A stretch of 64,000 nucleotides of DNA from Escherichia phage MLP3. Positions 6,965-40,789 of the stretch are shown one piece after another; the stretch's first letter is position 1, and the number at the start of each line of letters is the position of its first letter. The translations under genes and the position numbers were made by a program. The stretch is taken from the sequence record OK148440. One strand, given 5' to 3'. A model generated the notes under the pieces. It saw only the letters and a program-made list of their open reading frames with translations, did no database searches and was not told the origin of the DNA.

Positions 6965-7008
6965 AACTCCTTAATATATCAGTGTACACTAAGGAGTATA
7001 CATTATGT

Positions 7009-23678: not shown

Positions 23679-24530
23679 TTATACAATCTGGAGTTTAGAG
23701 GAGAATTTATCCGCTTCTTTAACATCGTTACTGTTGATGATGTTGTGAAGCTTTTCAATTGGAAGGCGAGAGTGAAGTGACATCAATACTTCCATATCAC
23801 AGCCTTGAACAACCTTATCAACTTGCTCATAAACAAACTTGCGGGTTGACTTCTCGCCAATCCAGAAGTTAGAAAGAGAACGATATTCAATACCGTAATC
23901 TTTGTAGCGAATGGCAGAAGCCTTTCCGTATAACTCTTTACGACGAGTATCTTTATCCATGATCACAGCTGGCAAGGACAGGAAGTAATCACACAACACA
24001 CCCAACATCATTTGAGTCTGACGACTAATTTCCAGCGTACCAGTGACGCCAAGGTGAACATGACCGCCAGCAGTACGCAGACCTTTGTCTGTCGCTACTG
24101 GAGATGGGTTTTTCTGACCAGTGAAGGCGTTGAAATCAGGAGTACAACCAAATACAAAGGCTGACGGATGGAAAGATTCCAGCTCTTCTGAAGTGAACAC
24201 ATGAGAGCTAATCCCAAGTGCTGCCTCCATGCCACGTTCATTGAGAACTTTGTTAGTCAGATCAATACCACGCTGAATGTTATCATTAAACGCTTCAAAC
24301 CCTTTCTGTGGGTTAATATCGAACTCGGCCAGAACGTTGTCTTCTTGAAGACGAACATCAGGGGCCAGATCAATTTTGTTGTCTTTAGAGCAGCCCAGCT
24401 TACCAGCCACAGAGGTGATAATACCAGAAGCAGTACGAACAAACATTTCAGGGTCAGAACCAATAAGGAAAGCACGCTTAGTCATTGTAATACTCCACGA
24501 GTTCATCAAAAAGGGAAACAACACGAGCAC
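23679..24530 (-). CDS. second amidoligase-like protein (tentative)
   Basis: FLIGSDPEMFV and GGHVHLGV motifs reminiscent of the E-x-E and HVH motifs of carboxylate-amine ligases. Confidence 0.4.
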   Translation of the reverse strand: MLVLFPFLMNSWSITMTKRAFLIGSDPEMFVRTASGIITSVAGKLGCSKDNKIDLAPDVRLQEDNVLAEFDINPQKGFEAFNDNIQRGIDLTNKVLNERGMEAALGISSHVFTSEELESFHPSAFVFGCTPDFNAFTGQKNPSPVATDKGLRTAGGHVHLGVTGTLEISRQTQMMLGVLCDYFLSLPAVIMDKDTRRKELYGKASAIRYKDYGIEYRSLSNFWIGEKSTRKFVYEQVDKVVQGCDMEVLMSLHSRLPIEKLHNIINSNDVKEADKFSSKLQIV

Positions 24531-25428
24531 CAGCTTCTTCTGGTGTCATTGAGGAAGGTACTGCTTGCATCAGTCGTTCGATAAAACTGCGAACAGTAAT
24601 TCTGTCCATACGCTGATCTAATACTTCTCTCTTGTGACCTGCACAAGTTGACCAGAGACGCAACCACTCACTCATACTCTCGTAATGGTCAGGGTCTTGG
24701 TCACGACGACGTGCCATACGACGGAGAACTCCATCATTGTGGTTTCGTACATAACCATCTCGGTTATCATCAACACCGAACACATTCTGAACCCATACGT
24801 TTTCAGAAAATTCATCAGTGGTGCAAATTAGTGGCAGAAATGCAATTGCACTCATGTCACCATCAAAATAAGTCGCTGCTGACTCGTCAGTTGAGTCTAC
24901 GTCATTACTATAACACCAGCGACCAAAGAAGTTACGACTTAAACCAGCTAAGCGTAGAGCTAAACCGATTCGTTGTCGCTTAAGCAACTCTTCCTTGTCT
25001 TGTACGCCTTCCTGAAGGAACTCCATTCCATTAAAATCACCATCCAAATAGCTACGGATGGTCATTAGTCCAGTAAACACCTTGTCTGCTGGATGGTTTC
25101 GAAGGTTCACGGCAATGGAGTTCACCGAAGTGACAGAGAACATATCTTTATAGCAAGACATTGAGTTAAAAATATCTGTTGCTTCAACTAAAGCTCTTTC
25201 GATATCTTTAGCTGGCACGCCATAAAAATTGTGAGGCCAGAAGTTAATAACTTCAATTTCTGAAGTTCTATCACGAAGGCTTGTTCGGTTACGACTTTCA
25301 CCGTTAATGTCTGTAACAGAATACATGTGCATACAGTTAAAAGTACCAAAGCAAGCTCTTCCTTTGAACACTGACTCACCGAAATCCTCTGCCGGTGTTA
25401 CCGGAGCAATCGATGCGGAGATTGACAT
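24478..25428 (-). CDS. hypothetical protein in amidoligase cluster
   Basis: 316-aa ORF. Confidence 0.55.
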   Translation of the reverse strand: MSISASIAPVTPAEDFGESVFKGRACFGTFNCMHMYSVTDINGESRNRTSLRDRTSEIEVINFWPHNFYGVPAKDIERALVEATDIFNSMSCYKDMFSVTSVNSIAVNLRNHPADKVFTGLMTIRSYLDGDFNGMEFLQEGVQDKEELLKRQRIGLALRLAGLSRNFFGRWCYSNDVDSTDESAATYFDGDMSAIAFLPLICTTDEFSENVWVQNVFGVDDNRDGYVRNHNDGVLRRMARRRDQDPDHYESMSEWLRLWSTCAGHKREVLDQRMDRITVRSFIERLMQAVPSSMTPEEAGARVVSLFDELVEYYND

Positions 25429-25436
25429 ATTCGCCT

Positions 25437-26654
25437 CTATTTATTAAAGAATAATTTTTCCATAATGGTTTCCCACTCTTCTGAGGGGAGGGTTGAGAAC
25501 CCGTTTCCGTGAAGCCTGTTTGTCATGCAACTAATAATATTGTACATGTTGTAGCTTCGGGTGGATTCTGTTCCATTGTTCCAGTTATAACCGAAAACAA
25601 TTTTATCGAAGGAGGTTTTATCCGTAGTTACTTCTCGGATGAACTCAACCAAGAGCGATTTCTCTGTGATGACCGCACGTTCACCATCTGGCAGATTACA
25701 ATACTGAGGAAGAAGGATTGGTAAGAACATCGAATTGTTCACTCGACAATCACGAACACCTTCACTGCGATAGATTAGGCTTGAGAAGTCTTCATCACGC
25801 AGGTGTCCTTCACCTTCAGTGTATTCACACTGTCGCCATTTGGTCTGGCGAGGTTCAATCATTGTACTGCCAACGCCTACTGTATACAGAGACGCTTGGA
25901 AGATACACGAGTCGTAATCATTCCCTGTTAAAGCAACTTGCTCATTGCCGAACACATCCACTGAAGAGTTAATCAGTCGGCTGAATGCAAGAGAGGCTAG
26001 TGGAGACCAACCTTTCTTATACATCTTGTTCAGCATTTCATACACAGCAGATTTTTCATCATCTGTATAGAATGTACGATTCAGCATCAGATAGAACAGA
26101 GCGCGATCAGCAGGACAACCATCAGTACAAACACCCATGAATCCTACTTCATGCCATACCAGACATGAGTCAGAATCTTTATCCATGAATGCTTCAAAGG
26201 CTTCCATTACAGCCCTGTCAGTAACATCAGGACGGTTGTTTTCTTCTGCCCATGTTTCTACATGAGAAGGAGGACGAGGGTCTCCATTCTCCACCCCTTC
26301 GCGGAAATATTGAGTGGTAATAGGCTTTTTATCACCATAACGTTTTACACCATAAGCGGGAAGGTGTGTACCAGAGTTCCAGATGTACTTAATTTCGGAC
26401 ATAGGCATCATGTTTTCGAGAACGTTCTCTTCAGCAGTGCCTTGACGAACCATCATATTTTCACTCCACACCTTAATGCGGATATTCCAGCCGTAGTTGC
26501 TGTCATACGTGTTATAATAATCAGGATCACCATCTTCATCTTCATCATAATCACCACCCTGATAGTAACCTGCTTTCAGGAAACCATAACAAGGAGGCCA
26601 GACGGTTACAACATCATCTGATTCTTTCCAGCTTTGAAGTGTTACAGGGAACAT
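25437..26654 (-). CDS. hypothetical protein in amidoligase cluster
   Basis: 405-aa ORF. Confidence 0.55.
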   Translation of the reverse strand: MFPVTLQSWKESDDVVTVWPPCYGFLKAGYYQGGDYDEDEDGDPDYYNTYDSNYGWNIRIKVWSENMMVRQGTAEENVLENMMPMSEIKYIWNSGTHLPAYGVKRYGDKKPITTQYFREGVENGDPRPPSHVETWAEENNRPDVTDRAVMEAFEAFMDKDSDSCLVWHEVGFMGVCTDGCPADRALFYLMLNRTFYTDDEKSAVYEMLNKMYKKGWSPLASLAFSRLINSSVDVFGNEQVALTGNDYDSCIFQASLYTVGVGSTMIEPRQTKWRQCEYTEGEGHLRDEDFSSLIYRSEGVRDCRVNNSMFLPILLPQYCNLPDGERAVITEKSLLVEFIREVTTDKTSFDKIVFGYNWNNGTESTRSYNMYNIISCMTNRLHGNGFSTLPSEEWETIMEKLFFNK

Positions 26655-26665
26655 CTTTTACCTCT

Positions 26666-27028
26666 TTACTCTGCTACCAAAAGGCTCAGAGATTTGCGAA
26701 TGTAGTCAATACTACGGAAGTTTCGATAATTCTCTTGGAAGCGCATCTTTTCAAACTCTGCTTCCTGAAGCTCTACCTCTGCTGCTTTATATCCTGATAA
26801 AGCTAAACTTACCACATCCTGAGGTAAGGTATTACGACGGCGAATAAGATATTTATTCGCTTTTAGTTTACCTTGTGCACGAGCCATTTTGGCCTTTGCC
26901 GCCTTGATACCATGAGAAATCCAAAGCAGTTGCTGTTTCAGATCTTCCTCATCCATACCACCTAAATCATTTGCTACTTTATGCAGCGTAGACAGGTTCA
27001 CATGGCCTTTAATGGGGCGTAGGTTCAT
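26666..27028 (-). CDS. hypothetical protein
   Basis: 120-aa ORF. Confidence 0.5.
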   Translation of the reverse strand: MNLRPIKGHVNLSTLHKVANDLGGMDEEDLKQQLLWISHGIKAAKAKMARAQGKLKANKYLIRRRNTLPQDVVSLALSGYKAAEVELQEAEFEKMRFQENYRNFRSIDYIRKSLSLLVAE

Positions 27029-27192
27029 AACTTCTCCTGTTTGTCACATTGATTGGTTAGCCAGTTGTAAGACCCACTGTTGTTCTTGCTTAACTCGCAA
27101 GATGCAAAAGAGTACATCCTGACAAACCCCACAGTGGCTAAGCAAATAAAGATTGCTGCCAATAAGAATTTAGCTTTCAACTTATTATCCAT
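27025..27192 (-). CDS. small membrane protein (55 aa)
   Basis: ATG at 27192 with GAAGAGG SD; hydrophobic LLAAIFICLATVGFV; stop overlaps next ATG (ATGA); below ORF-track cutoff. Confidence 0.35.
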   Translation of the reverse strand: MDNKLKAKFLLAAIFICLATVGFVRMYSFASCELSKNNSGSYNWLTNQCDKQEKL

Positions 27193-27212
27193 ACAACCTC
27201 TTCTTTGAGCTT

Positions 27213-27237
27213 AAAAAAGGACTCTCCTAAGAGAGCC
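27213..27237 (-). terminator. intrinsic terminator-like hairpin downstream of conserved element R1
   Basis: Minus strand GGCTCTC-TTAG-GAGAGTCC followed by TTTTTT. Confidence 0.45.
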
Positions 27238-27300
27238 AAGCTTTAAGGCCAATTAAATAGATATCACCCAATATCTGTGGATAACCTGCTCTTAAAATAT

Positions 27301-27436
27301 TCTATCCGACGGATGTTCGAGGATTATTCCTCTCCCTAGCATCGGCCCCATACGGGAAAGATTAAATTAAGTTTAGGTTAGTTGAGCCAGAATAGCTCAC
27401 ATAGCCCTCTGATACTCACAAGGGCTATAGATGTTA
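27301..27436 (-). promoter_or_regulatory. conserved ~130-nt element R1 with 8-bp hairpin (copy 1 of 2)
   Basis: About 70 percent identical to 32598..32722; shared blocks TCTATC, TCTCCCTAGC, CTCACATAGCCCTCTGATA-N-CACAAG-GCTATA; hairpin 27401-27408/27421-27428. Confidence 0.5.
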
Positions 27437-27682
27437 CTCTGTGGCTCCGTCGAATCGGAGGATTGCTGCTGGAACAGGGTATACTTCCAGATCTTCATCC
27501 AGTCGGTATAGATGCCCTGTACTTAAATTTACAGCTGTTACTGGCTTAGAGTGGCCTCCAGCCTGTATGGAAGGAACTCTGATAAAGAACTCTTCTGGAT
27601 ATTCAACAGAGTGGAACACACTTCCTGAATAAAGATCTTTTATTTTAGAAGTTTGTTTAGGAGTTTTATCAGCAATTTTCAT
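27434..27682 (-). CDS. small protein, paralog family B (L-x-DL-x-PG-x-VF core)
   Basis: MKI...KDLYSGSVFHSVEYPEEFF; family also at 28803, 29073, 32721, 32946. Confidence 0.5.
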   Translation of the reverse strand: MKIADKTPKQTSKIKDLYSGSVFHSVEYPEEFFIRVPSIQAGGHSKPVTAVNLSTGHLYRLDEDLEVYPVPAAILRFDGATE

Positions 27683-27915
27683 TACAGACCTTTCTTAGCA
27701 CGATCTTTGGCAGTTTTGCCAGTGCGGATACGATGGGAAACATTAACCAGCTCGCCACCTTCGACGATGGTTACGCTTTTGTTTTTCGCAATATCAAACA
27801 CAGTTTTCTCTGTGCCGCCCAGACGAATCTGTTTAGGCTCACTGTGGGTCTGAGTTGATTTAGACTGGAACTGGAACGGCTGACGGATGGCATCAATTGC
27901 GCTAACTTTAGACAT
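27682..27915 (-). CDS. hypothetical protein
   Basis: 77-aa ORF. Confidence 0.45.
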   Translation of the reverse strand: MSKVSAIDAIRQPFQFQSKSTQTHSEPKQIRLGGTEKTVFDIAKNKSVTIVEGGELVNVSHRIRTGKTAKDRAKKGL

Positions 27916-27943
27916 GTTTTTATTACCTTACATTAAAGAGAGA

Positions 27944-28357
27944 TTAAACAACGAATTGGAACGCTTCGTATCCAAACTTATATAAGAAATCGTGTTTGAA
28001 CTTCGTTACACGACCACGGTCACGGAAAGATTTCAGACGGTTACTGAACCCAGCCATCGGCTCAGGGTCAATAGGACTACGAATCTTCATAGCTACAGAG
28101 TGCAGCTTGAAGCGCTTACCAGTGCTACATGCCATCATCACATACTCCATACGAGTAGTCCAGATGTTAAGCACCATACTTGTTTTCTCCGCTGACCAAC
28201 CAGTCTTGCGGGCGATTTCCTTATGGATGTTAAGCTCCAAAGGAAGTGGGAATTGCTTGTTGAATGAAGCCGGATAGAGTTTGACCAGAAGATCAATGTT
28301 TTCTTTATACGTTAAGTAAGCTAATTTCTTGCTTACGTTGGGGAATTTCCCAGACAT
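27944..28357 (-). CDS. ProQ/FinO-domain RNA-binding protein (tentative)
   Basis: N-terminal region LVKLYPASF...PLPLELNIHKEIARKTGWSAEKTSMVLNIWTTRMEY resembles the ProQ/FinO domain. Confidence 0.45.
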   Translation of the reverse strand: MSGKFPNVSKKLAYLTYKENIDLLVKLYPASFNKQFPLPLELNIHKEIARKTGWSAEKTSMVLNIWTTRMEYVMMACSTGKRFKLHSVAMKIRSPIDPEPMAGFSNRLKSFRDRGRVTKFKHDFLYKFGYEAFQFVV

Positions 28358-28390
28358 TTTTGAAGCTCCAAAACAGCGCCGAAAAGAGAG

Positions 28391-28432
28391 GCGTCATAGT
28401 AGCTAAAAGGAGGAGAGAAGAGGGCTTATTTA
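28391..28432 (-). promoter_or_regulatory. bipartite conserved motif GCGTCATAGTAG-N13-AGAAGAGGGCTTAYTTA (copy A)
   Basis: Second copy at 34508..34550; both preceded by a short hairpin; located just upstream (minus sense) of the ProQ-like gene. Confidence 0.4.
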
Positions 28433-28555
28433 CTTGCCTTTTTCTGTCCGTTAATGTACCAGATAACTGAACCGTCAGGCTGTCGTTGACCGAAGCCTTT
28501 CAAGTTAACCATTTCTTCTTCAGAGTAGGCACGTTTTCTCACTGATTTTCTCCTG

Positions 28556-28813
28556 TCAGTAGAAGGTGTGTGTAGAGTCGTCGTTCATAGATAACCAAAC
28601 GAAGAAGACAATCACACAGAAAGCAATAACACCGAGAATTGCAAGGATTATAGTGTTAGCTAATGTGATATCTAACACGCTTTGCAGATACATAAAGAAC
28701 TGTACGACACCACATACCATCAGCACAACCCCAACGACAATGAGGAGCCAATATGTGCAGAGAAGGACTGCATCTAATAGTGATACATACTTTGGATGAT
28801 CTTTATGTCTCAC
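28556..28813 (-). CDS. membrane protein
   Basis: Several hydrophobic helices (LLCTYWLLIVVGVVLMVCGVV; ILAILGVIAFCVIVFFVWL). Confidence 0.45.
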   Translation of the reverse strand: MRHKDHPKYVSLLDAVLLCTYWLLIVVGVVLMVCGVVQFFMYLQSVLDITLANTIILAILGVIAFCVIVFFVWLSMNDDSTHTFY

Positions 28814-29069
28814 TGATCTTTTCCACTAAATCCAGAGTTGCTGATTCAAATACAACACCAACTACCATATTAGGTGCCATATTACGAACGTATCCGCTCT
28901 GCATAGACACGGCCCGAGAGTATTCAGAACCGTTAGAACTTTTGTTTACCTTCATGTAAAGGGTTTGCTCTTTATCTTCTTTCAGAGTAAAGAAAGAGCC
29001 GGGAAGAAGCCTCTGAACAGTCAGAGGGATATCTGCAACATGAGTCTTATTGATAGTAAGAACTGTCAT
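28803..29069 (-). CDS. small protein, paralog family B (divergent)
   Basis: LLPGSFFTLKEDKEQTLYMKV matches family core. Confidence 0.45.
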   Translation of the reverse strand: MTVLTINKTHVADIPLTVQRLLPGSFFTLKEDKEQTLYMKVNKSSNGSEYSRAVSMQSGYVRNMAPNMVVGVVFESATLDLVEKISET

Positions 29070-29072
29070 TGC

Positions 29073-29327
29073 TTATTCCTTAATAGTTGCTTCAGCTTTA
29101 ATAGGAATAACAGCAACATCTTTACGAGGTGCTGTCGCTCGACCTGTGTTAAGGCAGGCTACAAGTCTATGCTCGTCCGCACCCTTGATGCAGAGTCGAG
29201 TTGAGAACTCAGTAGACAGCAAGATGTACAAATCATCATCTTCACTGTTAGGGTACATGAAGCAATCCCCAAGTCGTAAAGCACTGAGAGGTATTGCACT
29301 CTTACCTGCTGGTTTATTAACTTTCAT
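29073..29327 (-). CDS. small protein, paralog family B
   Basis: LSALRLGDCFMYPNSEDDDLYILL matches family core. Confidence 0.5.
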   Translation of the reverse strand: MKVNKPAGKSAIPLSALRLGDCFMYPNSEDDDLYILLSTEFSTRLCIKGADEHRLVACLNTGRATAPRKDVAVIPIKAEATIKE

Positions 29328-29603
29328 TTTACCACCTTTAGTTATGGACCAATTTATGAGAGAACTCTCGGAAGAATGCTTTCATAAATAGGGGGAGGGG
29401 ACGAATCCTCCCATATCCTATTAATTAATATTGCATGTAAGATCTAACAATTCGATGCTGTAGTGGATAGCGTAAAACGCTTACCGGCATTAAACCCAGC
29501 CCATGAGGGGCTTATGTGAATAAAATGCTCAACATTGAGCGGTTAGTTGATAGGAGATCTGAAGTCCTATCTCAAAGGACTCTCGTAAGAATCCTTCACG
29601 ATA

Positions 29604-29870
29604 TTACTTAGTAATAAAGACTGTCACCTTATCCATTACCCAGCCTATCAGCATAAGGAAAGGTAAGAAGAGGATAAAGATCAGCATAAAAGGCCAGAAG
29701 AATATCACCGTCCAAATAGAGTATTCATCAGGCTTACCACTCCATGAGGAATGGAAGAAGTTGTAGAGTGTATTGGTTTTGAAGCACCATTTAACTACAA
29801 TGGCTGCCAACCACCAACCAATAACATAAATCAGGAGGACATACGCTGCTGTAACCATTGACCGTTCCAT
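29604..29870 (-). CDS. membrane protein
   Basis: Hydrophobic helices throughout 88-aa ORF. Confidence 0.45.
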   Translation of the reverse strand: MERSMVTAAYVLLIYVIGWWLAAIVVKWCFKTNTLYNFFHSSWSGKPDEYSIWTVIFFWPFMLIFILFLPFLMLIGWVMDKVTVFITK

Positions 29871-30085
29871 TGATAGTTGCGAGTTACCACGTTTCCGTGG
29901 ATAAGAAAGTGCTGGCGGCGAAGGATATCTTTAACGTTGTAATAGGCAGCGTTACCGAGATGGCCTTCTTTGATAAGCCAACGAAGATTACGAATATCAA
30001 CCAACAGCATTTTTACTTGCTGTTGGCATGAAGTTTGAGCTGCTGTTTCAAGTAGAGCTTTCGTATCAGAATAATGACCGGACAT
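29831..30085 (-). CDS. hypothetical protein
   Basis: 84-aa ORF. Confidence 0.4.
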   Translation of the reverse strand: MSGHYSDTKALLETAAQTSCQQQVKMLLVDIRNLRWLIKEGHLGNAAYYNVKDILRRQHFLIHGNVVTRNYQWNGQWLQQRMSS

Positions 30086-30086
30086 A

Positions 30087-30419
30087 TCACCACTCCTTAC
30101 CTGTTGTTGTCACAGAGCCACCACACAGCTCACCACGGGAGATGAAGTCATAACGTGACCAATCACCTTGGGTAGCCATATCACGATCTGCATAAGCTTT
30201 CTCGTCAACAGCACCGCCATTGGAACAAGAAGCACCGGCATAACGTATATCAACCTCACCACTAGGAATCTTCTCCCCGCTATGCCAACGGGAAACACAG
30301 ACACCTTCTACAGATAATGCACACCATCCATCAGGACGATGCTGTACACAGCCTGTAAGAGCTACACAGGCGATAAAGATACAGGTTAAGGTAATTACAC
30401 CACCCCAACTCATAAGCAC
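30087..30419 (-). CDS. putative lipoprotein
   Basis: Signal peptide ending in lipobox LTGC (ACVALTGC). Confidence 0.5.
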   Translation of the reverse strand: MLMSWGGVITLTCIFIACVALTGCVQHRPDGWCALSVEGVCVSRWHSGEKIPSGEVDIRYAGASCSNGGAVDEKAYADRDMATQGDWSRYDFISRGELCGGSVTTTGKEW

Positions 30420-30430
30420 CTCCTATTTGA

Positions 30431-30520
30431 TTTGGTGGACTATCTGGAATCGAACCAGAAGCTCACTAAGAAAGCAATTCCCACTGTTATAAAAGCACTT
30501 GCCTCAACAGGGATACACTA
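30431..30520 (-). ncRNA. tRNA-like element (non-canonical; possible second tRNA or pseudo-tRNA)
   Basis: Minus-strand sense ends ...TCTGG-TTCGATT-CCAGA-TAGTCCACCA (canonical T-arm and CCA-like end) but no canonical acceptor/D/anticodon fold found by eye. Confidence 0.3.
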
Positions 30521-30551
30521 ACTCTGGTGCCGTACCCATACTAGCCCTAAA

Positions 30552-30627
30552 TGTGGTGCACCCTACAGGACTCGAACCTGTAACCAACGACTTAGAAGGT
30601 CGCTGCTCTGTCCGTTGAGCTAAGGGT
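30552..30627 (-). tRNA. tRNA-Arg (anticodon UCU)
   Basis: 76-nt cloverleaf folded by hand: acceptor GCACCCT/AGGGTGC, D-stem GCTC/GAGC, anticodon stem GCGAC/GTCGT with loop CTTCTAA, T-arm ACAGG-TTCGAGT-CCTGT, encoded CCA. Confidence 0.9.
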
Positions 30628-30638
30628 GCTGAATTTGT

Positions 30639-30848
30639 TTAACTGAAGATACGCAAGGCCACATCGTGACCGATATGACCGGGAACTTTATGCTGTTCTA
30701 TTTTCAAACAGTGTTTACAGATACGAGATACACGAGATTCTTTTCTCTCTACTGGAGTGTCTTTAGCGTGAGTGATATGTAAGTTTTCAGTGACCACCCA
30801 TTCATGTTTACATCCAGAATCTTCGGGCTTTTTCTTACGAAAGAACAT
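30639..30848 (-). CDS. small zinc-ribbon protein
   Basis: CKHEW...CKHC Cys/His pairs. Confidence 0.45.
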   Translation of the reverse strand: MFFRKKKPEDSGCKHEWVVTENLHITHAKDTPVERKESRVSRICKHCLKIEQHKVPGHIGHDVALRIFS

Positions 30849-30856
30849 AACACCCC

Positions 30857-31021
30857 TTAGATCAGATCTGTTTTCTTGTGCTTACCACACACTTTACAGC
30901 GGGAATAGATACGCAACCCCTGTCGCTCTCCTCCAGCAAGACGATGTGTAACCTTCAATTCATAAGTAGAAAGATCTTCCCACTCATGGAAATGAAAGAG
31001 ACGCTTGAACCATTTAATCAT
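30857..31021 (-). CDS. small zinc-ribbon protein (54 aa), paralog of 31031..31216
   Basis: MIKWFKRLFHFHEW...CKVCGKH parallels MIKWLKRVFHCHDW...CKVCGDV; below ORF-track cutoff. Confidence 0.4.
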   Translation of the reverse strand: MIKWFKRLFHFHEWEDLSTYELKVTHRLAGGERQGLRIYSRCKVCGKHKKTDLI

Positions 31022-31030
31022 AATGATTCC

Positions 31031-31216
31031 TTAGATTACATCACGATGACTAACATCACCACACACCTTACACTGAATAACGTAACGTGTGCCCTTGTCA
31101 TTGTTCCCATCTGAATCTGTATAGACCAGAGGACGGGTGTTAATAATCTTCCAATCATGACAATGGAAGACACGCTTTAGCCATTTAATCATACTAAGCA
31201 CACGCCGGTAATTCAA
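31031..31216 (-). CDS. small zinc-ribbon protein
   Basis: HCHDW...CKVCGD motif. Confidence 0.45.
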   Translation of the reverse strand: MNYRRVLSMIKWLKRVFHCHDWKIINTRPLVYTDSDGNNDKGTRYVIQCKVCGDVSHRDVI

Positions 31217-31451
31217 TTAACTGAGGAGTACGACAAGGGCCATCCTCATACACACCTACTAGTGTTGGCATGTAAGGCCCAGCGCACTGGTATTCATCGA
31301 ACAGTTCATTGTAAGTAGGCTTCCACTTCCAAGCCCACACATAACCCATTCGATCAATGGCAATGTAACGAGTGTTCAGAGGAACCTGCATCATCACATC
31401 ACCAACTGCTATTACTTTCGTAATAACTACTGCTCGGAAGTTTGTCTTCAT
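31194..31451 (-). CDS. hypothetical protein
   Basis: 85-aa ORF. Confidence 0.45.
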   Translation of the reverse strand: MKTNFRAVVITKVIAVGDVMMQVPLNTRYIAIDRMGYVWAWKWKPTYNELFDEYQCAGPYMPTLVGVYEDGPCRTPQLIELPACA

Positions 31452-31756
31452 GACTTTGCAGCCTCCATCATTTTATTCATTTTAGCCACACCTTTACGGA
31501 TAAGAGGCATAAATTCATCAGCCAGTTCAGTGGATAAAAGTTTAAGCCCGCCTGATTTAATACCGTTCACCGCCTTCTCAACTTCATCCGACAGCAATGT
31601 CATTGTTAACCACGGGGATTTTATTACCACAGTAAAGCCTGGTTCATACCGCGAGTGACTGTAGGTGAACTCTAAATGAGTAACACCGGGCATCTTAGAC
31701 ATTTGAGCACGGATATCTACATTAGGGTTGCAGCGAGTTGAAGATGAAATTGTCAT
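31448..31756 (-). CDS. hypothetical protein
   Basis: 102-aa ORF. Confidence 0.5.
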   Translation of the reverse strand: MTISSSTRCNPNVDIRAQMSKMPGVTHLEFTYSHSRYEPGFTVVIKSPWLTMTLLSDEVEKAVNGIKSGGLKLLSTELADEFMPLIRKGVAKMNKMMEAAKS

Positions 31757-32094
31757 GGCGCTTTAATCTCAATCTGAACGTTGACGACGAATACAGTATG
31801 GTTTGCACTGTACACTGAAGTGCCTATGATTGGCTTATCATCACTGAGGATTTCAACAGCGTGCTCAAGGTTAATCTTCAGATGAAGACGCCCTGATTCC
31901 ATGAAGAAATCACCAGCACGTATCTCACCGAACTTAGCTGGCACACCGATAGAGGGTATCAGTATGTCAGTGCGACCTTTACGGTCAAATAAACGATTGA
32001 ACATATCAACCTCTCTTGTTAGTTTAAGTAAGAGTTGTCCCTTAATTAAAACAACAAAGGCCACCCCTAAGGGCAGCCTCTTATTTAAGCGCAA
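31753..32094 (-). CDS. hypothetical protein
   Basis: 113-aa ORF. Confidence 0.5.
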   Translation of the reverse strand: MRLNKRLPLGVAFVVLIKGQLLLKLTREVDMFNRLFDRKGRTDILIPSIGVPAKFGEIRAGDFFMESGRLHLKINLEHAVEILSDDKPIIGTSVYSANHTVFVVNVQIEIKAP

Positions 32095-32300
32095 GCACTA
32101 CGCAGTTTGTTATTCAAGAAGCGATCTTCTGCATTATACAGGAATGCATAGAACAACTCTTTTGCTACATCCCGATCGCAATTGAGACATTTAGAGATCT
32201 GTAACAACAAACCATCACGACTATTAGGATGATCAATTATCGCAAGACGAATAATCTCACGAATACCAATGTCATGCTCAGCCGCCATAGAACCAATCAC
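32085..32300 (-). CDS. hypothetical protein
   Basis: 71-aa ORF. Confidence 0.45.
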   Translation of the reverse strand: MIGSMAAEHDIGIREIIRLAIIDHPNSRDGLLLQISKCLNCDRDVAKELFYAFLYNAEDRFLNNKLRSACA

Positions 32301-32457
32301 CCTGACGTTTACGAATGTTAGTTGTCAGACGAAGCATGGCAGACTCAATCTTCAAAGCACCATTTGCTACTGCATCCATACGTTCAGGACGGTTCATACG
32401 TTTGGTTGTCTTTTTCATAATGTTCTCTCTTTATTGATGGAGGCAGGATTGCCAGTT

Positions 32458-32493
32458 AATATAAAGGGAAGCCCTACACGTTAAGGCTTCCGC
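32458..32493 (-). terminator. intrinsic terminator-like hairpin downstream of conserved element R2
   Basis: Minus strand GGAAGCC-loop-GGCTTCC (7 bp) followed by CTTTATATT. Confidence 0.45.
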
Positions 32494-32597
32494 TTGTACA
32501 AACTGTCGAGAACTCTCTACCCCTAGAATGTTCTCTATCCCAAACCGATACATACCCCTACATATCGGAATGCCATTCGAAAATTAACAGGTTTTAG

Positions 32598-32722
32598 TCT
32601 ATCACCGGATGTTTGAGACAAGTCTCTCCCTAGCGGTGAGCCATATGGCGTTGAGATTATAGTTAATTGAGGAACACCCTCACATAGCCCTCTGATAAAC
32701 ACAAGAGCTATAAGTCGATGTT
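32598..32722 (-). promoter_or_regulatory. conserved ~130-nt element R2 with hairpin (copy 2 of 2)
   Basis: Homolog of 27301..27436; hairpin 32684-32691/32704-32711; the single stem mismatch on the plus strand becomes a G-U pair in minus-sense RNA. Confidence 0.5.
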
Positions 32723-32945
32723 ACTTGTTGGTTAGTCGTGCGTTAGGTACAGGTCTGACTACAGTCGATTTACACTCAGAATCACGCTTACCTGTATAAA
32801 GGTTAACAAAATAACTTTTGTTTTCACCATAACACGCAGTACGCATGTAGTATTGAGTTTCATTGTAGTTAAACTGGAAGACTTCACCCGGATTTAGGTC
32901 TCCGAGAGTTACAACCTCTGGCGTACTATCAATGTCAATCTTCAT
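32721..32945 (-). CDS. small protein, paralog family B
   Basis: MKI...LGDLNPGEVFQFNYNETQYYM. Confidence 0.5.
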   Translation of the reverse strand: MKIDIDSTPEVVTLGDLNPGEVFQFNYNETQYYMRTACYGENKSYFVNLYTGKRDSECKSTVVRPVPNARLTNK

Positions 32946-33176
32946 TTAACCACCAATATTAGTCACTTGAACATCAAATACAGGGATAACTTCATGATGT
33001 TCCTGTAACTGGAATAGTGTTCCCTGACGAAGACCAACCACACGATGCATATCATTCAGGCAGGTGTCTGTCTTTAGATAGAGGTGTTCAGAGTTAGTTG
33101 GTAGACGGAATACATCACCCGGACGTAGATCGCTGAGTTTTTTAGTAACAACTAAAGATGGGAGATTAATTTTCAT
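32946..33176 (-). CDS. small protein, paralog family B
   Basis: MKI...LSDLRPGDVFRLPTNSEHLYL. Confidence 0.5.
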   Translation of the reverse strand: MKINLPSLVVTKKLSDLRPGDVFRLPTNSEHLYLKTDTCLNDMHRVVGLRQGTLFQLQEHHEVIPVFDVQVTNIGG

Positions 33177-33364
33177 TTGATTAACACCAAATCAGTACGA
33201 CGTTCGAAGGAAGGGGAGGATTCACCATTCCACTGAACAAGATAACAGAGAACACCATCAATCGTTGTTCTCCGACGAATAACACCTGTAACAGTTCCAC
33301 CAACAAGGCGAACGGTGTCGCCAACGGTAAATTTAACCTTTGATCGCATCTCCTGTTTCCTCAT
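33173..33364 (-). CDS. hypothetical protein
   Basis: 63-aa ORF. Confidence 0.45.
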   Translation of the reverse strand: MRKQEMRSKVKFTVGDTVRLVGGTVTGVIRRRTTIDGVLCYLVQWNGESSPSFERRTDLVLIK

Positions 33365-33638
33365 TCTGGCGTTTAATTTCTTCAGTGAGTTGTTTGTTTA
33401 GATCTTGAATACGCTTAATCTCCCAACCCAAAGAAGCCAAACGATCGTTACGTGCTTCGATTTGTTCCTGCATTTTGAGTAATTTGGAACGAACATCAGC
33501 ATTAAAAACTTCTTCTTGCTTAAGAAGGAACTCGTAACGACGCTTCCAGCTTGCTGATTTATTTCTTAAAATAATAAACCCTAGAGTAGAAACCGTTACA
33601 GTGAGTACGAAAAGGAACTTATAAACCTCTAAAGACAT
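33333..33638 (-). CDS. membrane-anchored coiled-coil protein (spanin- or FtsB-like architecture)
   Basis: N-terminal TM helix FLFVLTVTVSTLGFIIL followed by charged coiled-coil. Confidence 0.45.
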   Translation of the reverse strand: MSLEVYKFLFVLTVTVSTLGFIILRNKSASWKRRYEFLLKQEEVFNADVRSKLLKMQEQIEARNDRLASLGWEIKRIQDLNKQLTEEIKRQNEETGDAIKG

Positions 33639-33839
33639 ATCTTTATCCTCTTAAAGTAAGATATTATAAGAAATATTATTTAGAATTTATTATTTCTAAA
33701 CTTAATTTCTATCAATAATTTTCAGAGGTCTATATACAGTCATTACCTCTGGTCCCAAATCACTTCCACTTTTTACAGAGAAAATCATAAGTGTGTGATT
33801 TATAAGGAAATTTAGTTTGTCAATATTGGCACCTACGAA

Positions 33840-34226
33840 TCAGTCACGGGAGCTATTATTGAACACTAAATCACCACAATACATCGGATTGGTATACCAC
33901 TTTGGCACCCCTTCGCTCTTACTCTGAAAGTATGTACCACTGTATAAAGGCACATAATCTTTCTTCAGTGCACGCCTTGCAAGCCGCTCGCTTTCTCTGA
34001 TTGATTTCTTTATCAGAGGGTTATCATCACGAATTAGCTTTACATAACGCTTAAAAGGTTTCTCCTTCTTTAATAGGACGGGTATCCACTCGAACTGGTT
34101 TCGTTGATTTATAACCTGCTCGGCAGTCAGTTTTCGTTGTGACATTCTGTTTATTACGGTATCCGCTACTAATGCTTTGCAAGCGGTTGGCTGATTCCCT
34201 GCCTCATAATAAATAGTCAATGTCAA
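33840..34226 (-). CDS. SleB/CwlJ-like cell wall hydrolase domain protein (TTG start as in ORF track)
   Basis: LTIYYEAGNQP...ALVADTVINR resembles the Hydrolase_2 (SleB) N-terminal motif. Confidence 0.45.
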   Translation of the reverse strand: MTLTIYYEAGNQPTACKALVADTVINRMSQRKLTAEQVINQRNQFEWIPVLLKKEKPFKRYVKLIRDDNPLIKKSIRESERLARRALKKDYVPLYSGTYFQSKSEGVPKWYTNPMYCGDLVFNNSSRD

Positions 34227-36728: not shown

Positions 36729-37541
36729 CTTTCAATTGTAAGGGCACTATGCCCCGCTCTCTATGAGCTTTTTAAGTCACTATTGACTTATCAATAATCA
36801 CTCAATATCAAGTAATTATTGATAAGCGAGGCGGTCTTATCAGGAGTTAACCTTGCCGCCTCCTTATCCGTGATGTTTCATCTGGTATCTTTAATTAGTC
36901 GCTATAAATAAAGCCGACCTGATAGCGATGATCAATCATCACAATAAGGCAGTGCGTCCGACTCTATTTAATTACTTTATCGTAACCGTCGGCAATATCG
37001 TCTACTTTGCTTTCGCTCCCGCCTATCCTTTTGTACTAACTCTCAATCGCTAACCATCGCCCACTACGGGAGGTTATTGCGAAAGAGTCATTAGCCGTCT
37101 AATACATTGACGTTTTATATCTTTCAGCAGGTTTACTACATAAACTGATTATGTACGCCATCAATAGTGGCCTCAAATCATTCACATCGTAAACGTTCAC
37201 ACTAAACCTTATTGTTAAATAGCAATTTGCCACTTTTTAACCATTCACCGCCGCCCCCAATTGGGCGTTAATTCGTCGGATTTGCCTACCCTGATAAACT
37301 TCTTTCACTGTAGCACCTTGTTAGCGATGGCCGCCGCTACCCTTTAACCGTGGGCGATTAGTTTAGGCCGTTGCGTGTACTCAATGAATCCGTTTTATCA
37401 GTGGTGACGTTTCCAGTTAAGGGATTGTAAAAACTGTTTACCCTGATAATTTAGGGAGTCTTACGCCGTTTTATCTGGTATGTTTTCCGATGGTTATTAT
37501 CATCCAACATATTCAACCGATATAGGAGAATGTTTAAATTG

Positions 37542-37552
37542 TTAAAGAGCGG
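37542..37552 (+). promoter_or_regulatory. TTAAAGAGCGG motif copy 1
   Basis: Exact 11-mer repeated at 37772 and 37908, variant at 38311; followed by TATCAGTGTG. Confidence 0.3.
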
Positions 37553-37771
37553 TAAATCTATCAGTGTGCTTTCTCACACTATGCAACTGTTAGCCGTTGT
37601 TACGCTTTTCTTAAGCGGTGAATTGCTTAAGTGTGCTCATTATGAATCATGCTGTTTTAGCTGTCAACCGCTTTTTAATCTTTTTCGTCGTTCCCTTTAT
37701 TGGGAGGATATATCAATCAGCTATATTTGATTGAAGATTAAGCGGTAAGGCTTAACTCGCGATTCATATTT

Positions 37772-37782
37772 TTAAAGAGCGG
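37772..37782 (+). promoter_or_regulatory. TTAAAGAGCGG motif copy 2
   Basis: Exact 11-mer; followed by TATCAGAGTG. Confidence 0.3.
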
Positions 37783-37907
37783 TGTTTCTTACTGCTTGGT
37801 GAACATTCTATCAGAGTGTTTCACCTTGTCAACTCTTTTTATCATCTTCTTTTATTCTATTCCCTTATCTCGCTTGAATCTATGCGAAAGGGCAAGATGA
37901 TAAATTG

Positions 37908-37918
37908 TTAAAGAGCGG
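37908..37918 (+). promoter_or_regulatory. TTAAAGAGCGG motif copy 3
   Basis: Exact 11-mer preceded by AAATTG as in copy 1; followed by TATCATAGTG. Confidence 0.3.
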
Positions 37919-38052
37919 GGCACTAAGTGCCGGATGTTTCAAGTCATCGCTGACCGTGTGAACATCTTATCATAGTGATTCGATGTGTCAACAACTATTT
38001 TTCGATTAATGCATCTTGATAAACTAGCGACCATTAAGGCCGCTAACCTACC

Positions 38053-38253
38053 TCAGTTCATACGTTTAAAGGTTAAATCTTTATCCGTACTTACCAGCGA
38101 AAGCACCGCAATAGCTTTGCCTTTATCGGCATCGGCTACCATCTCTTTAGCTTGCTGTAGCGTACTACCGACTATTCTCATAATCATGTTAGTAACGTTA
38201 ATGCTAGTGCAAGTGATTTGCGTGTCTTTGCTTGAGAAGGTGTAAATATTCAT
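38053..38253 (-). CDS. small hypothetical protein (66 aa)
   Basis: ATG at 38253 with TGAGGA SD 8 nt upstream (ORF-track ORF 38053..38292 trimmed). Confidence 0.35.
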   Translation of the reverse strand: MNIYTFSSKDTQITCTSINVTNMIMRIVGSTLQQAKEMVADADKGKAIAVLSLVSTDKDLTFKRMN

Positions 38254-38310
38254 TGATAAATCCTCATTATGGCATGGTTGGGAGTTTATCAAGATACACT
38301 AATCAGATTC

Positions 38311-38320
38311 TTAAAGAGCA
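38311..38320 (+). promoter_or_regulatory. TTAAAGAGCA variant motif copy 4
   Basis: Variant of the 11-mer. Confidence 0.2.
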
Positions 38321-38568
38321 AGGCTAAACATCTAGCCTATCAGGAGGTAATTTACTGCGTCACGTCCTGACAAGATTCAATATACACTATCCTAAAACCG
38401 TTGCAAGCCTTTTTCTAAAATAATTTCACTTTCTTTTAGGCATAGAGGAACACGCGCACGAATAGCATCAAGGGAGGAAGAAAACAAGCCTTATAATCGA
38501 AAATAAGGCATACAGGAGGCGTTCTAACGAGCTAAACAGGGGCAAGATGTGCAATCACCTTAGAAATG

Positions 38569-38591
38569 AAAAAAGCGCCTCAAAAGGGCGC
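38569..38591 (-). terminator. rho-independent terminator
   Basis: Minus strand GCGCC-CTTTTGA-GGCGC followed by TTTTTT, immediately after stop of 38603..38974. Confidence 0.6.
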
Positions 38592-38602
38592 TTAGGGAAG
38601 TT

Positions 38603-38974
38603 TTACGGATTGGTGCAAGTGCCGTTACCGGATGATATTTCGTTCATCGACTCATCAAACAACGTCATGCTAGACCGCATCATGTGATCTATAGTGATTT
38701 GCTTTCCGGTAATTTCGTTAACAAGCATCGCATACTTGCCATCAACGACACGACGATCATAGTCATTCAGGTCAATCAATACTACCTTGCTAGACTTCTT
38801 TCCAGTGTCGTAGTTTTCCATAAGGTAGGTGCATTGCAGACCATCAAGGCTAGACTCATTGAATACGGCAGCATAGGACACGGAAGAAATAGCGAACAAA
38901 GCAGAACATACAGCTAATTTAATTTTCATGATCCAACCCTTAAGCGGAACGTGCAACAAAGAAAAACAAGTCAT
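38603..38974 (-). CDS. secreted protein
   Basis: Signal-peptide-like N-terminus MKIKLAVCSALFAISSVSYAA. Confidence 0.55.
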   Translation of the reverse strand: MTCFSLLHVPLKGWIMKIKLAVCSALFAISSVSYAAVFNESSLDGLQCTYLMENYDTGKKSSKVVLIDLNDYDRRVVDGKYAMLVNEITGKQITIDHMMRSSMTLFDESMNEISSGNGTCTNP

Positions 38975-39021
38975 AGATAAATGCTATGATACAGAGAACT
39001 AACAGACAATGCAAAAAATAC

Positions 39022-39294
39022 TTATGTAACATTACTCACCACTTTATCTAGATGATCATTGAACGTTTCACAAATGGATTGCACTTCGTCAATATCTAAT
39101 AGCAGACCGTGACGGGCAAAGAATTGAGCTAACTCAAGATAATCCGCACCAATAAGCATGACACCATTGAAAGGGGCGATCTTAACATCTTGAGATGTTA
39201 CCAATAATAAATTACCAATATCAGCAATAGCGTCATAATTCAGCGTAACGCCTACACCGTAATTGTGTGTTTCAATAATGGCAATAGTTTCCAT
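39022..39294 (-). CDS. hypothetical protein
   Basis: 90-aa ORF. Confidence 0.45.
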   Translation of the reverse strand: METIAIIETHNYGVGVTLNYDAIADIGNLLLVTSQDVKIAPFNGVMLIGADYLELAQFFARHGLLLDIDEVQSICETFNDHLDKVVSNVT

Positions 39295-39296
39295 CG

Positions 39297-39545
39297 TTAA
39301 TTATCCTCGACGGTTAGTAGTTCTTCCAGTGACAAACCGGATTTAACCAGCAAATCACGATATTCGTTAGCATCCATCGGATCGAGGCCGGATAATCGGG
39401 CAACGGTCATGCGTGCATGTGCTGAAGACAAGGAAGCTAAAGCACGGATAGGAATCAATACAAGCCCATACTTGCCACTAATAACTAAATCACCGTGCTG
39501 GATGCACATATGAGCATTTACTACGATTGCAAATGATTCGTTCAC
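39297..39545 (-). CDS. hypothetical protein
   Basis: 82-aa ORF. Confidence 0.45.
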   Translation of the reverse strand: MNESFAIVVNAHMCIQHGDLVISGKYGLVLIPIRALASLSSAHARMTVARLSGLDPMDANEYRDLLVKSGLSLEELLTVEDN

Positions 39546-40405
39546 TTGATAGCCTCACAATTAGCAAAGTTAATAAAAGTTGTATAGACTGCTATACCGT
39601 CATTGTAGGCAGTGGTAGCGAGTACAGTTTCGCTAACATCGCCATAACTAACGAGATTAGTTACAAACTGTAATTTCTCTTTCTCAATCTTCTGATATAG
39701 AGAATAAGTTACCATGTCATGATCACTATCAGCACGCTTTAAATTAATAACCGATTGAACGCCAGACTTATCACCTAAGGGGGTAAGAGTGACACGCACA
39801 CTACTAACACTGACGTCATTGAAACGAACACGCCAAAAGGCATCATTTCCATCACTTCCAACGTCACGGCAAGCCATATCAGGAGCGTTTTTAAACGTGC
39901 TAACAAAGGATTGCAGACCAGTAGAAAGAGAGTCTTTTGCCTGAACATTGGTAGAGATAGCACTAACACCGATAGCTGCAACCAGTGCATAAGAAGCCAG
40001 ATTAACAGACTTCATAATCTTACTTGCAATAGAAGGCTTGCTATCTTTCTTCTTCTTGTTCTGAATAGCTTCAACCATAGCAGACAAGCGGGATAATACT
40101 GCGTTAGCATCGCGGCAAGATTCAGGCCAATCCTTTTGAGTCCAACTATCTAAATTAGCCTGAATGTAACAGTTGATAGCATCTTGCATATCGGTAAAAC
40201 CATTCTCTTTCATCGACTCTTTATCTTCACACTGTAAGGCGTTCGCGGTGGAATCAATGATGAGGCAAGCCAGAATGACAGAGTTTTTGAAGCTGGTACG
40301 AGCTTGCTGGTTATCCATCCATTGAGAAGGCACACCAACGGAAAGACCTAACGAAGAAAGTACATCATTTGCTTGATTCAAGTATTTAATTGCTAACTTT
40401 GACAT
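39542..40405 (-). CDS. hypothetical protein (287 aa); first gene of the leftward block
   Basis: Long ORF adjacent to the divergent intergenic region. Confidence 0.55.
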   Translation of the reverse strand: MSKLAIKYLNQANDVLSSLGLSVGVPSQWMDNQQARTSFKNSVILACLIIDSTANALQCEDKESMKENGFTDMQDAINCYIQANLDSWTQKDWPESCRDANAVLSRLSAMVEAIQNKKKKDSKPSIASKIMKSVNLASYALVAAIGVSAISTNVQAKDSLSTGLQSFVSTFKNAPDMACRDVGSDGNDAFWRVRFNDVSVSSVRVTLTPLGDKSGVQSVINLKRADSDHDMVTYSLYQKIEKEKLQFVTNLVSYGDVSETVLATTAYNDGIAVYTTFINFANCEAIK

Positions 40406-40789
40406 TTCCTTATCCTTTCGGTTGATGTGAATTAAAAACTACGATTGCAACTATATATTAAAGGAAAAACCTGTCAACCACTTATTTTCAAACTATTTCA
40501 TAACTCACTGAATATAAAAGGAATTTAATTTACTAAACTTTCTTGTTCAGAGATACAGCTTACCAAATAGATGTTATTTTATAACACTTACAGAACGGGT
40601 AGCAGACCAACGGGATAGATAGATGGGTAAGACGTGCCGCATAGGTTAGCCAATGGGTAAGAAGCCTAACGAGGAAGGGGAAACGGGTAGGATATAATGT
40701 AAGTTAGTTACAGTTAACAGGTCAGACCATGCGGTAATAAATTACCAGTCAATTCGCTACTATCGTAGCTCATATCAAATTCCTACTCA

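Follow-up and report, generated by a model that had tools for sequence, protein, structure and literature searches.

A conserved structured RNA element present in two copies in the early operon of a phiEco32-like coliphage

The DNA analyzed here, a 64,000-nucleotide (nt) stretch of Escherichia phage MLP3 (record OK148440; hereafter the window), derives from a phiEco32-like coliphage (Suseptimavirus/Kuravirus), with positions 31000-34000 being 99% identical to Escherichia phage IME267 and matched by ~98 records of the Gordonclarkvirinae (Kuravirus and Suseptimavirus). In this region two minus-strand early genes, an upstream open reading frame (ORF) of 74 amino acids (aa; 32721-32945) and a downstream ORF of 46 aa, are separated by a non-coding gap (32419-32725), and the surrounding genes also lie on the minus strand. 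The gap is occupied by an element, R2, which an initial annotation had described as the second copy of a conserved hairpin element spanning 32458-32722. Comparative analysis establishes with high confidence that R2 is a conserved non-coding structured RNA folded in the sense of transcription and, again with high confidence, that R2 and a shorter element of the same operon, R1, are ancient paralogues. Together they constitute an apparently undescribed family of structured RNAs in phage early transcripts that is common to three phage families.

The R2 element and its conserved fold

The fold of R2 was derived from an alignment of 18 diverse homologues, for which a consensus was calculated with RNAalifold and pair cells were counted on the alignment. 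Standard pairs made up 99.4% of the 1404 pair cells, and 13 pairs, corresponding to 44 cells, were changed on both sides. When pairing partners were slid by 1-3 columns, 37-47% of the R2 cells were paired, and placing three R2 helices one column out of register gave 44-52%; the structure statistics of R2, and those of the core that it shares with R1, were far above the shuffled and slid controls. The predicted helices contain 148 G-U cells versus 2 A-C cells, and the consensus fold was more stable in the sense than in the antisense direction both for R2 (-90.3 versus -59.9 kcal/mol, a difference of 30 kcal/mol) and for R1 (-59.3 versus -42.0 kcal/mol), in agreement with the earlier proposal that selection acts on RNA structure in the minus sense. 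That proposal had been built on a single hairpin, whose arms, ATAGCCCT (32684-32691) and AGAGCTAT (32704-32711), form 7 Watson-Crick pairs on the plus strand, with a single C-A mismatch; in the minus-sense RNA (AUAGCUCU/AGGGCUAU) the mismatch indeed becomes a U-G wobble, and the same C-to-U change recurs in phage WFI101126 (alignment pair 39-56, with CG in 16 sequences and UG in 2). The single wobble alone cannot show on which strand selection acts, and the comparative data are much stronger. The conserved unit of ~300 nt contains at least eight helices, of which this hairpin is only the first, and its edges lie slightly outside the limits annotated initially (Table 1).

The annotated hairpin corresponds to the upper stem of helix P1 (32684-32711), and the lower stem of P1 holds the stop codon of the upstream gene (TAA, 32721-32723). 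A linker separates P1 from the core, in which the strands of the internal loop read CUAGGGA (32627-32633) and AAACAUC (32608-32614) in R2, and the core is followed by helices P5 and P6; TAGGGGTA of P5 is invariant in all R2 copies, and P6 occupies the position that the terminator hairpin has in R1. Further downstream, the initial annotation had placed a 7-base-pair (bp) terminator hairpin at 32467-32491. A hairpin is present at this position (P7a; GGAAGCC/GGCUUCC, 7 perfect pairs, or 10 with G-U extensions, then CUUUAUAUUA), but its reading as an intrinsic terminator did not hold, since in Kuraviruses the tail reads CCCUUAUAUCAAC or CGCUAUAUCAAC, with no U-tract, and most Kuraviruses carry a 58-nt insert. 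A terminator scan matched P7a only in this window, through a borderline T-run. Because the tails of the relatives lack a U-tract and the helix often encloses the 58-nt insert, P7a is a structural helix of the RNA and not a conserved terminator.

The leader ends in a nearly invariant segment with a small hairpin, P8, in which a CCUCC box (32439-32443) is predicted to be able to pair with the weak Shine-Dalgarno sequence AAAGAGAGA (32424-32432) of the downstream gene, a homologue of phiEco32 gene 112; the letters of this 3' end are all invariant, so that covariation speaks neither for nor against the P8 and CCUCC pairs. R2 contains the sequence AACAUC(C)G in two places, one at the P1 base, overlapping the stop codon, and the other in the internal loop, on its 3' strand, and each of them can pair with GGGUGUU, which forms the 3' strand of lower P1 (sites 32670-32680, 32607-32613 / 32713-32720). 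A ribosome halting at the upstream TAA could in principle switch the R2 fold, a possibility on which covariation cannot decide because the letters concerned are nearly invariant. A closing helix around the R2 core, comparable to helix P0 of R1, was considered and is not supported.

Across 98 phage records the intergenic sequence of R2 is 79-99% identical, and it aligns with IME267 as a single 307-nt match of equal length. The wider segment 31000-34000 matches IME267 66842-70060 in two pieces (3001 versus 3219 nt, with ~218 extra bases in IME267). Some of the 98 records have the gene upstream of R2 swapped for unrelated genes, and the junction AAGUAAC (AAGTAAC in DNA) at the 5' edge of R2 is kept even there. 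The upstream gene is a member of a family of early proteins of 72-82 aa (MKI...DLxxGDVF...NLxTG...; PHROGs 9955, 16423, 6570, 7431 and 7832), represented on the minus strand by ORFs 32721-32945, 32946-33176 and 27434-27682. Members of this family lie directly upstream of R1 and R2 and also of the single copy in phages related to Salmonella phage 7-11. Since the gene is replaced in some genomes and belongs to a multi-copy paralogue family, its adjacency to R2 is probably incidental, and a functional tie between the two was rejected. On the 3' side, the gene 112 homologue directly follows R2 in every Gordonclarkvirinae genome examined; its product has a basic N-terminus (MKKTTKRMNRPER) and carries no family annotation.

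R2 itself encodes no protein, because the longest stop-free stretches shift in frame and position among the 18 homologues and the relatives carry indels of 1-2 nt. No sigma-70-like promoter was called on the minus strand in R2, and no phage-sigma motif was found near it; a TATAAT hexamer in the linker was rejected as a promoter of its own, being present in this window only and not in relatives. A blastn comparison of R2 with 5,426 E. coli genomes returned no similarity.

A paralogous copy, R1, and the shared core

The description of R2 as a second copy was borne out, as R1 carries a perfect hairpin at 27396-27429 (91% identity) and R2 was recovered by a covariance model containing zero R2 sequences. 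The two elements are colinear, each consisting of P1 over the upstream stop codon, P2, P3 with its internal loop and P3a, a G-loop hairpin and a final hairpin. BLAST joins them through P1 only, and alignment reveals a second common block, GCUAGGGNGAG...CUCRAACAUCCG. The covariance model was built from 23 cores of the R1 type, the 7-11 type and the divergent contig L057 (described below), and was run with filters off. In the 64-kilobase (kb) window it returned exactly two sites, both on the minus strand, at 27302-27364 (E = 9e-23) and at 32599-32657 (E = 3e-10); no third copy of the core was detected in the window, the next match having an E value of 0.68.

The shared core comprises 52 nt that form a small hairpin and a 6-bp helix, a 7x7 internal loop (CUAGGGN/RAACAUC) and a capping hairpin. 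In a model-based alignment of 51 matches (36 distinct sequences), all of the 455 pair cells were standard (455/455), 7 of the 13 pairs were changed on both sides and two pairs showed three Watson-Crick types each. Set among these helices are 28 invariant columns, which include the whole internal loop. The N:R position of the loop covaries, with A:G in 20, C:A in 12, A:A in 4 and C:G in none of the 36 distinct sequences, and both main states are found inside each of three lineages. Such a pattern would be expected of an isosteric non-canonical (sheared-type) pair, which is the putative geometry of this position.

R1 additionally contains a helix enclosing the core (P0) and ends in a strong intrinsic terminator; in both phage families, compensatory changes maintain the stem of this terminator, and its loop is UUCG or GAAA. 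Inside R1, the minus strand carries a perfect DnaA box, TTATCCACA (27276-27284), which overlaps P0 on the 3' side and does not vary in any R1-type copy, those of the Salmonella 7-11-like phages among them. A one-mismatch DnaA box in inverted orientation is located at 27185-27193.

Table 1. Features of R2 and R1 in the window
Feature	Coordinates	Strand	Basis and remarks
R2, edges	32725 to 32418	minus	from upstream TAA (32721-32723, included) to start codon of next ORF at 32418
R2 helix P1, long irregular hairpin	32670-32725	minus	21 pairs, 99.7% of cells paired (RNAalifold, counts); single-sequence fold agrees
R2 A/U-rich linker with motif CUCA(N1-2)UAAC, common to R1 and 7-11	32650-32671	minus	alignments
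R2 core helix P2, GCC-AUAU-GGC, 3 bp, conserved RUAU loop	32640-32649	minus	CG/GC switches in 2 of 3 pairs, all cells paired
R2 core P3 (6 bp), 7x7 internal loop and capping hairpin P3a (GAGA-CUUG-UCUC)	32602-32639	minus	4 of 6 P3 pairs change both sides
R2 helix P5, first invariant UAGGGGUA loop	32545-32568	minus	9 pairs, 100% of cells paired; changes are G-U/G-C/A-U transitions
R2 helix P6, second invariant UAGGGGUA loop	32508-32535	minus	12 pairs, 4 changed both sides
R2 domain P7, outer CAGUU/AACUG around hairpin P7a (32467-32491)	32453-32505	minus	6 P7a pairs change both sides
R2 nearly invariant leader 3' end with small hairpin P8 (32443-32452)	32419-32452	minus	RNAalifold, pair counts
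46-aa basic ORF, phiEco32 gene 112 homologue	32278-32418	minus	PHROG 13305 match, E = 4.5e-31 (PHROG function unknown)
R1, paralogous copy	27213-27438	minus	P1 27391-27438, P2 27347-27356, P3/loop/P3a 27306-27345
R1 helix P0 enclosing the core	5' strand within 27367-27380, 3' strand within 27275-27295	minus	UAACCU/AGGUUA plus covarying extension
R1 P5-like small G-loop hairpin	27259-27276	minus	
R1 strong intrinsic terminator	27213-27237	minus	hairpin then U6; 68 nt downstream of R1 core

Distribution and comparison with known systems

R2 was found in 98 phage records; R1 was found in 104 records that include Grimontviridae, with R1 reaching a coverage of at least 80% in 97 records. The R1-type copies sit between the phiEco32 genes 91 and 90 in all Gordonclarkvirinae records, and are present at 70-76% nucleotide identity in the Salmonella phages 7-11, SE131 and pSal-SNUABM-01, all Grimontviridae, a group with only a distant, protein-level relationship to phiEco32 (PMC8948821). 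Only one copy is present in the 45-kb leftward region of phage 7-11. When public collections were scanned for the exact pattern, numerous Kuravirus-like contigs were recovered together with a single divergent one, L057 (contig JBOFGJ010000684.1), which was deposited as a Flavobacterium metagenome-assembled genome and resembles Citroviruses of Enterobacterales by nucleotide similarity. In the copy of L057, compensatory changes maintain P2 and P3, and the hairpins further downstream resemble those of R2. At least 7 small early ORFs of this contig end in the peptide EENE. The Citroviruses Pecta and CVT22, relatives of L057, were searched and lack the element, indicating that its distribution is patchy. 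Six further loci from the pattern scan (L027, L032, L044, L049, L056 and L039) were rejected as chance matches, because L027 and L039, the only distinct sequences among them (that of L027 being identical in the remaining four), lack the helices and fail the covariance model.

At the gathering threshold, Rfam 15 identified nothing but tRNA in the whole window. At E values up to 10, R2 gave two chance-level matches only, and R1 gave sub-threshold matches to STnc100 and TarB over its terminator part only. A described RNA in Kuravirus, Gordonclarkvirinae or phiEco32 was not found in the literature searched, which did not include the two primary papers on phiEco32 (Savalia 2008; Pavlova 2012).

The nearest known analogue is the pair of put RNAs of phage HK022 (putL and putR), two related copies that act in cis as processive antiterminators, need no protein and contain non-canonical stem pairs (PMC9378689); put RNA binds the beta-prime zinc-binding domain. 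Both put and R1/R2 are pairs of related, compact, irregular stem-loops with non-canonical pairs, contained in early transcripts made by the host polymerase. The put sites lie upstream of terminators that have to be read through; R1 lies 68 nt upstream of a strong terminator, and several terminator-like hairpins precede R2. However, put consists of two long stems in ~70 nt whereas the core consists of a 3-bp hairpin and one long irregular stem, and the put copies lie in two divergent operons just after the promoters whereas R1 and R2 lie in one operon, 5-13 kb from the promoters. We searched HK022 24000-32000, which we take to be the early-control region holding the put sites (these are unannotated in the record and their presence in that region is unconfirmed), with the core model and filters off, and the best match scored 10 bits (E = 0.2). 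Given this negative search and the different architecture, the element is not a member of a put family.

In the nut system of phage lambda, the boxA/boxB pair is likewise present twice and nutL is located directly upstream of the gene for the small basic protein N. The element shares with this arrangement a hairpin followed by a short linear motif, present twice, with one copy just upstream of a gene for a small basic protein. No boxA consensus (CGCUCUUUA-like) was found by the hairpin, where CUCA(N1-2)UAAC is a partial match only, is absent in L057 and, in R1, is partly paired in helix P0. A boxB with a fixed GNRA-like pentaloop was not found either, the loops of P1 (12 nt, UUCG or a hexaloop) and P3a varying in sequence and length. 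As for a cognate arginine-rich antiterminator protein, the gene 112 product has a basic N-terminus and just 46 aa, and in phage 7-11 its gene does not adjoin the element. The RNase III sites of the T7 and T3 early genes are irregular hairpins with an internal bubble in polycistronic RNA made by the host polymerase, and R1 and R2 resemble them as paralogous irregular bubble hairpins between early genes in RNA of the same origin. The anatomy is of the T7 type, with P1 forming 21 pairs with internal loops from the stop codon onward, P3-loop-P3a amounting to ~17 pair-equivalents, and two copies being present; the differences are a much stricter conservation of the loop, the restriction to two sites and the additional helices with fixed GGGG loops. 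Finally, the core has the covarying helices of an aptamer-like domain and, as in riboswitch leaders, is a folded domain upstream of an intrinsic terminator (R1) or a maskable ribosome-binding site (R2). It differs from such leaders in that no overlap of terminator and antiterminator is conserved between the R1 copies of Kuraviruses, where AAGAGC can pair with the GCUCUU arm of the terminator, and the 7-11-like copies, and in having no clue to a ligand and no Rfam match.

The early operon and possible roles of the element

phiEco32 and 7-11 are model phages for the control of transcription by phage sigma factors, and how polymerase passes through their early operons, which extend over ~25-30 kb with few sigma-70 promoters and many terminators, is a question raised in the literature (PMC8948821). 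In the window, R1 and R2 are both inside the early leftward operon. On the minus strand, strong sigma-70 promoters, which combine TTGACA and a good -10 box, are confined to 37639-40477, and no minus-strand sigma-70 promoter scoring at least 11 of 12 was found between 27.2 and 7.4 kb. Perfect phage-sigma motifs (TAATGTATA) are present on the minus strand only at 6997-7005 and 425-433, and motifs with one mismatch were observed at 23062-23070 and around 11 kb. The gp36 promoters of phiEco32 precede genes 6, 13, 26, 40, 58 and 68, and the minus-strand motif positions fit those published upstream of genes 68, 58 and 40 (PMC8948821). Terminator-like hairpins are enriched (23 found versus 12.9 expected), with 20 of them on the minus strand, and those upstream of R2 lie at 35.8 kb and 34.3-34.5 kb. 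Past the R1 terminator, ~16-20 kb of genes have no recognizable promoter of their own. Because the terminator is conserved and no strong promoter occurs before ~7 kb, the genes just past it appear to depend on read-through from the distant early promoters. For phage 7-11, Lavysh et al. arrived at the same view and stated that early transcription must be antiterminated "by a strategy that remains to be defined" (PMC8948821).

Since the core is invariant within covarying helices, is conserved across phage families and occupies a position in the nascent transcript, and since the R1 terminator precedes promoter-less genes, we tentatively favor the reading that the element is a cis-acting module that binds a factor or RNA polymerase and thereby governs read-through or expression of this promoter-poor, terminator-rich operon, an explanation that is possible without yet being probable. 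Given its 28 invariant letters set in freely covarying helices, the 52-nt core would then be a folded site at which conserved machinery of the cell docks, and not a phage protein that co-evolves with it. The likeliest partner would be the host RNA polymerase during transcription, or an elongation or termination factor of that enzyme, with the element acting in cis on the nascent early transcript and the core setting the fraction of transcription that passes the intrinsic terminators of the operon, most directly the R1 terminator. In R2, the core would head a large structured leader, the 3' end of which could mask the weak ribosome-binding site of gene 112. A narrower version, in which the core is a put-like direct binder of the host transcription machinery that makes early transcription complexes terminator-resistant or tunable, with an architecture unrelated to put, nut or EAR, is rather doubtful; if true, it would supply the undefined antitermination strategy postulated for 7-11.

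Several points weigh against a cis-acting module of this kind. R2 cannot be the first loading site for antitermination, because several terminator-like hairpins precede it, and no conserved terminator directly follows it. A put-like element remains on polymerase for 10 kb, so that a second copy within one transcription unit would be redundant, and no homology of the core to put was detected in the HK022 region searched. In the alignment, the mutually exclusive AAGAGC/GCUCUU antiterminator pairing of Kuravirus R1 shrinks to 4 bp or disappears in the 7-11-like copies. The patchy occurrence in Citroviruses, moreover, looks more like that of an accessory module than of a part of the core transcription program.

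That patchiness fits an accessory role in host takeover or anti-defense, as would be expected if the element gave rise to a stable trans-acting RNA. Transcripts would end at the R1 terminator or be cut, and a compact body of ~150-200 nt made of P0, P2, P3, P5 and the terminator would survive, titrating a host protein (an RNase, an RNA chaperone, or a defense or translation factor) or pairing with a host RNA through the conserved single-stranded UCCACAG. R1 is built like a terminator-ended small RNA, in which a hairpin and U6 come after a structured body, the colinearity of R1 and R2 extends as far as the final hairpin, the element lies in the early region, and loop letters that are invariant across phage families point to a host partner. 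We nevertheless consider this explanation rather unlikely, as a conserved promoter precedes neither copy, R2 has no terminator of its own and continues into the ribosome-binding site of gene 112, the lack of similarity to E. coli means that it is not a recognizable mimic of a host RNA, and no Rfam small-RNA family matched above threshold. A host partner of another kind is invoked if P1, P3-loop-P3a or both are RNase III or RNase E sites that, as in T7, serve processing or stability by leaving protective hairpins at the new ends. Such a signal would account for irregular hairpins of ~18-21 pair-equivalents exactly between genes, for P1 beginning at the stop codon of the upstream gene and for paralogous copies within one early operon read by the host polymerase, and RNase III, as a conserved host enzyme, could account for the fact that different phage families have kept the element. 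The sequence requirements of RNase III are loose, and fourteen invariant loop letters together with the isosteric non-canonical covariation exceed them; P3-loop-P3a is also short for a classic substrate, and only two of the dozens of early gene junctions carry such a site, making a processing signal unlikely.

A further reading is that of a riboswitch for a metabolite or ion, with the 52-nt core as the aptamer and, as expression platforms, the intrinsic terminator in R1 and masking of the ribosome-binding site in R2. The size and conservation are those of an aptamer, junction letters are invariant and stems covary freely, one core lies upstream of different downstream devices, and a universal ligand would explain invariance across families. 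However, the R2 core is separated from the ribosome-binding site by ~170 nt in this window and by ~230 nt in most Kuraviruses, with three unrelated helices between; the 7-11-like copies do not preserve the terminator/antiterminator alternative, the neighboring genes give no metabolic hint and no Rfam riboswitch matched, all of which render this explanation improbable. Very improbable is an action at the level of DNA, as a replication origin, a DnaA-bound site, a hairpin signal in single-stranded DNA or a recombination junction of the early cassettes. The perfect DnaA box of the R1-type copies and the fixed junction AAGTAAC beside a variable upstream gene agree with such a role, and G-T is the least destabilizing mismatch in DNA. 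Yet R2 has no DnaA box, half of the box in R1 is explained by the RNA helix UAACCU/AGGUUA, a recombination junction would need no compensatory base changes, and the strong strand asymmetry, the abundance of G-U pairs and the isosteric covariation at a non-canonical pair are signatures of RNA.

With respect to early transcription in these phages, the element is a candidate RNA participant, backed by covariation, and its conservation extends over ~100 therapeutic-type coliphage genomes and two additional phage families. Its internal loop, small and invariant and with a non-canonical pair that covaries in an apparently isosteric manner, presents a well-defined target for biochemistry, and the different downstream contexts of R1 and R2 provide a built-in natural comparison.

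Other features were observed in the window and in phage 7-11. A gene for tRNA-Arg (anticodon UCU) lies between R1 and R2 on the minus strand (30554-30629), and a strong terminator-like hairpin of 11 pairs is located two small genes downstream of R2 (32056-32081, minus strand), with a loop, CUUAGGGGUG, that shows the motif UAGGGG. In phage 7-11, a 710-nt stretch just downstream of the gene 112 homologue (37135-37845 of locus L059; 82134-82844 of the record) has no annotated or convincing ORFs and gave a sub-threshold match to permuted transfer-messenger RNA (29.6 bits, E = 4.5e-4), and ARAGORN found nothing there. On the plus strand of the window, 52861-53299 contains four copies of a 67-nt unit with spacings of 90 and 192 nt and 64-100% identity, which probably represent a repeated peptide motif in a single coding region.

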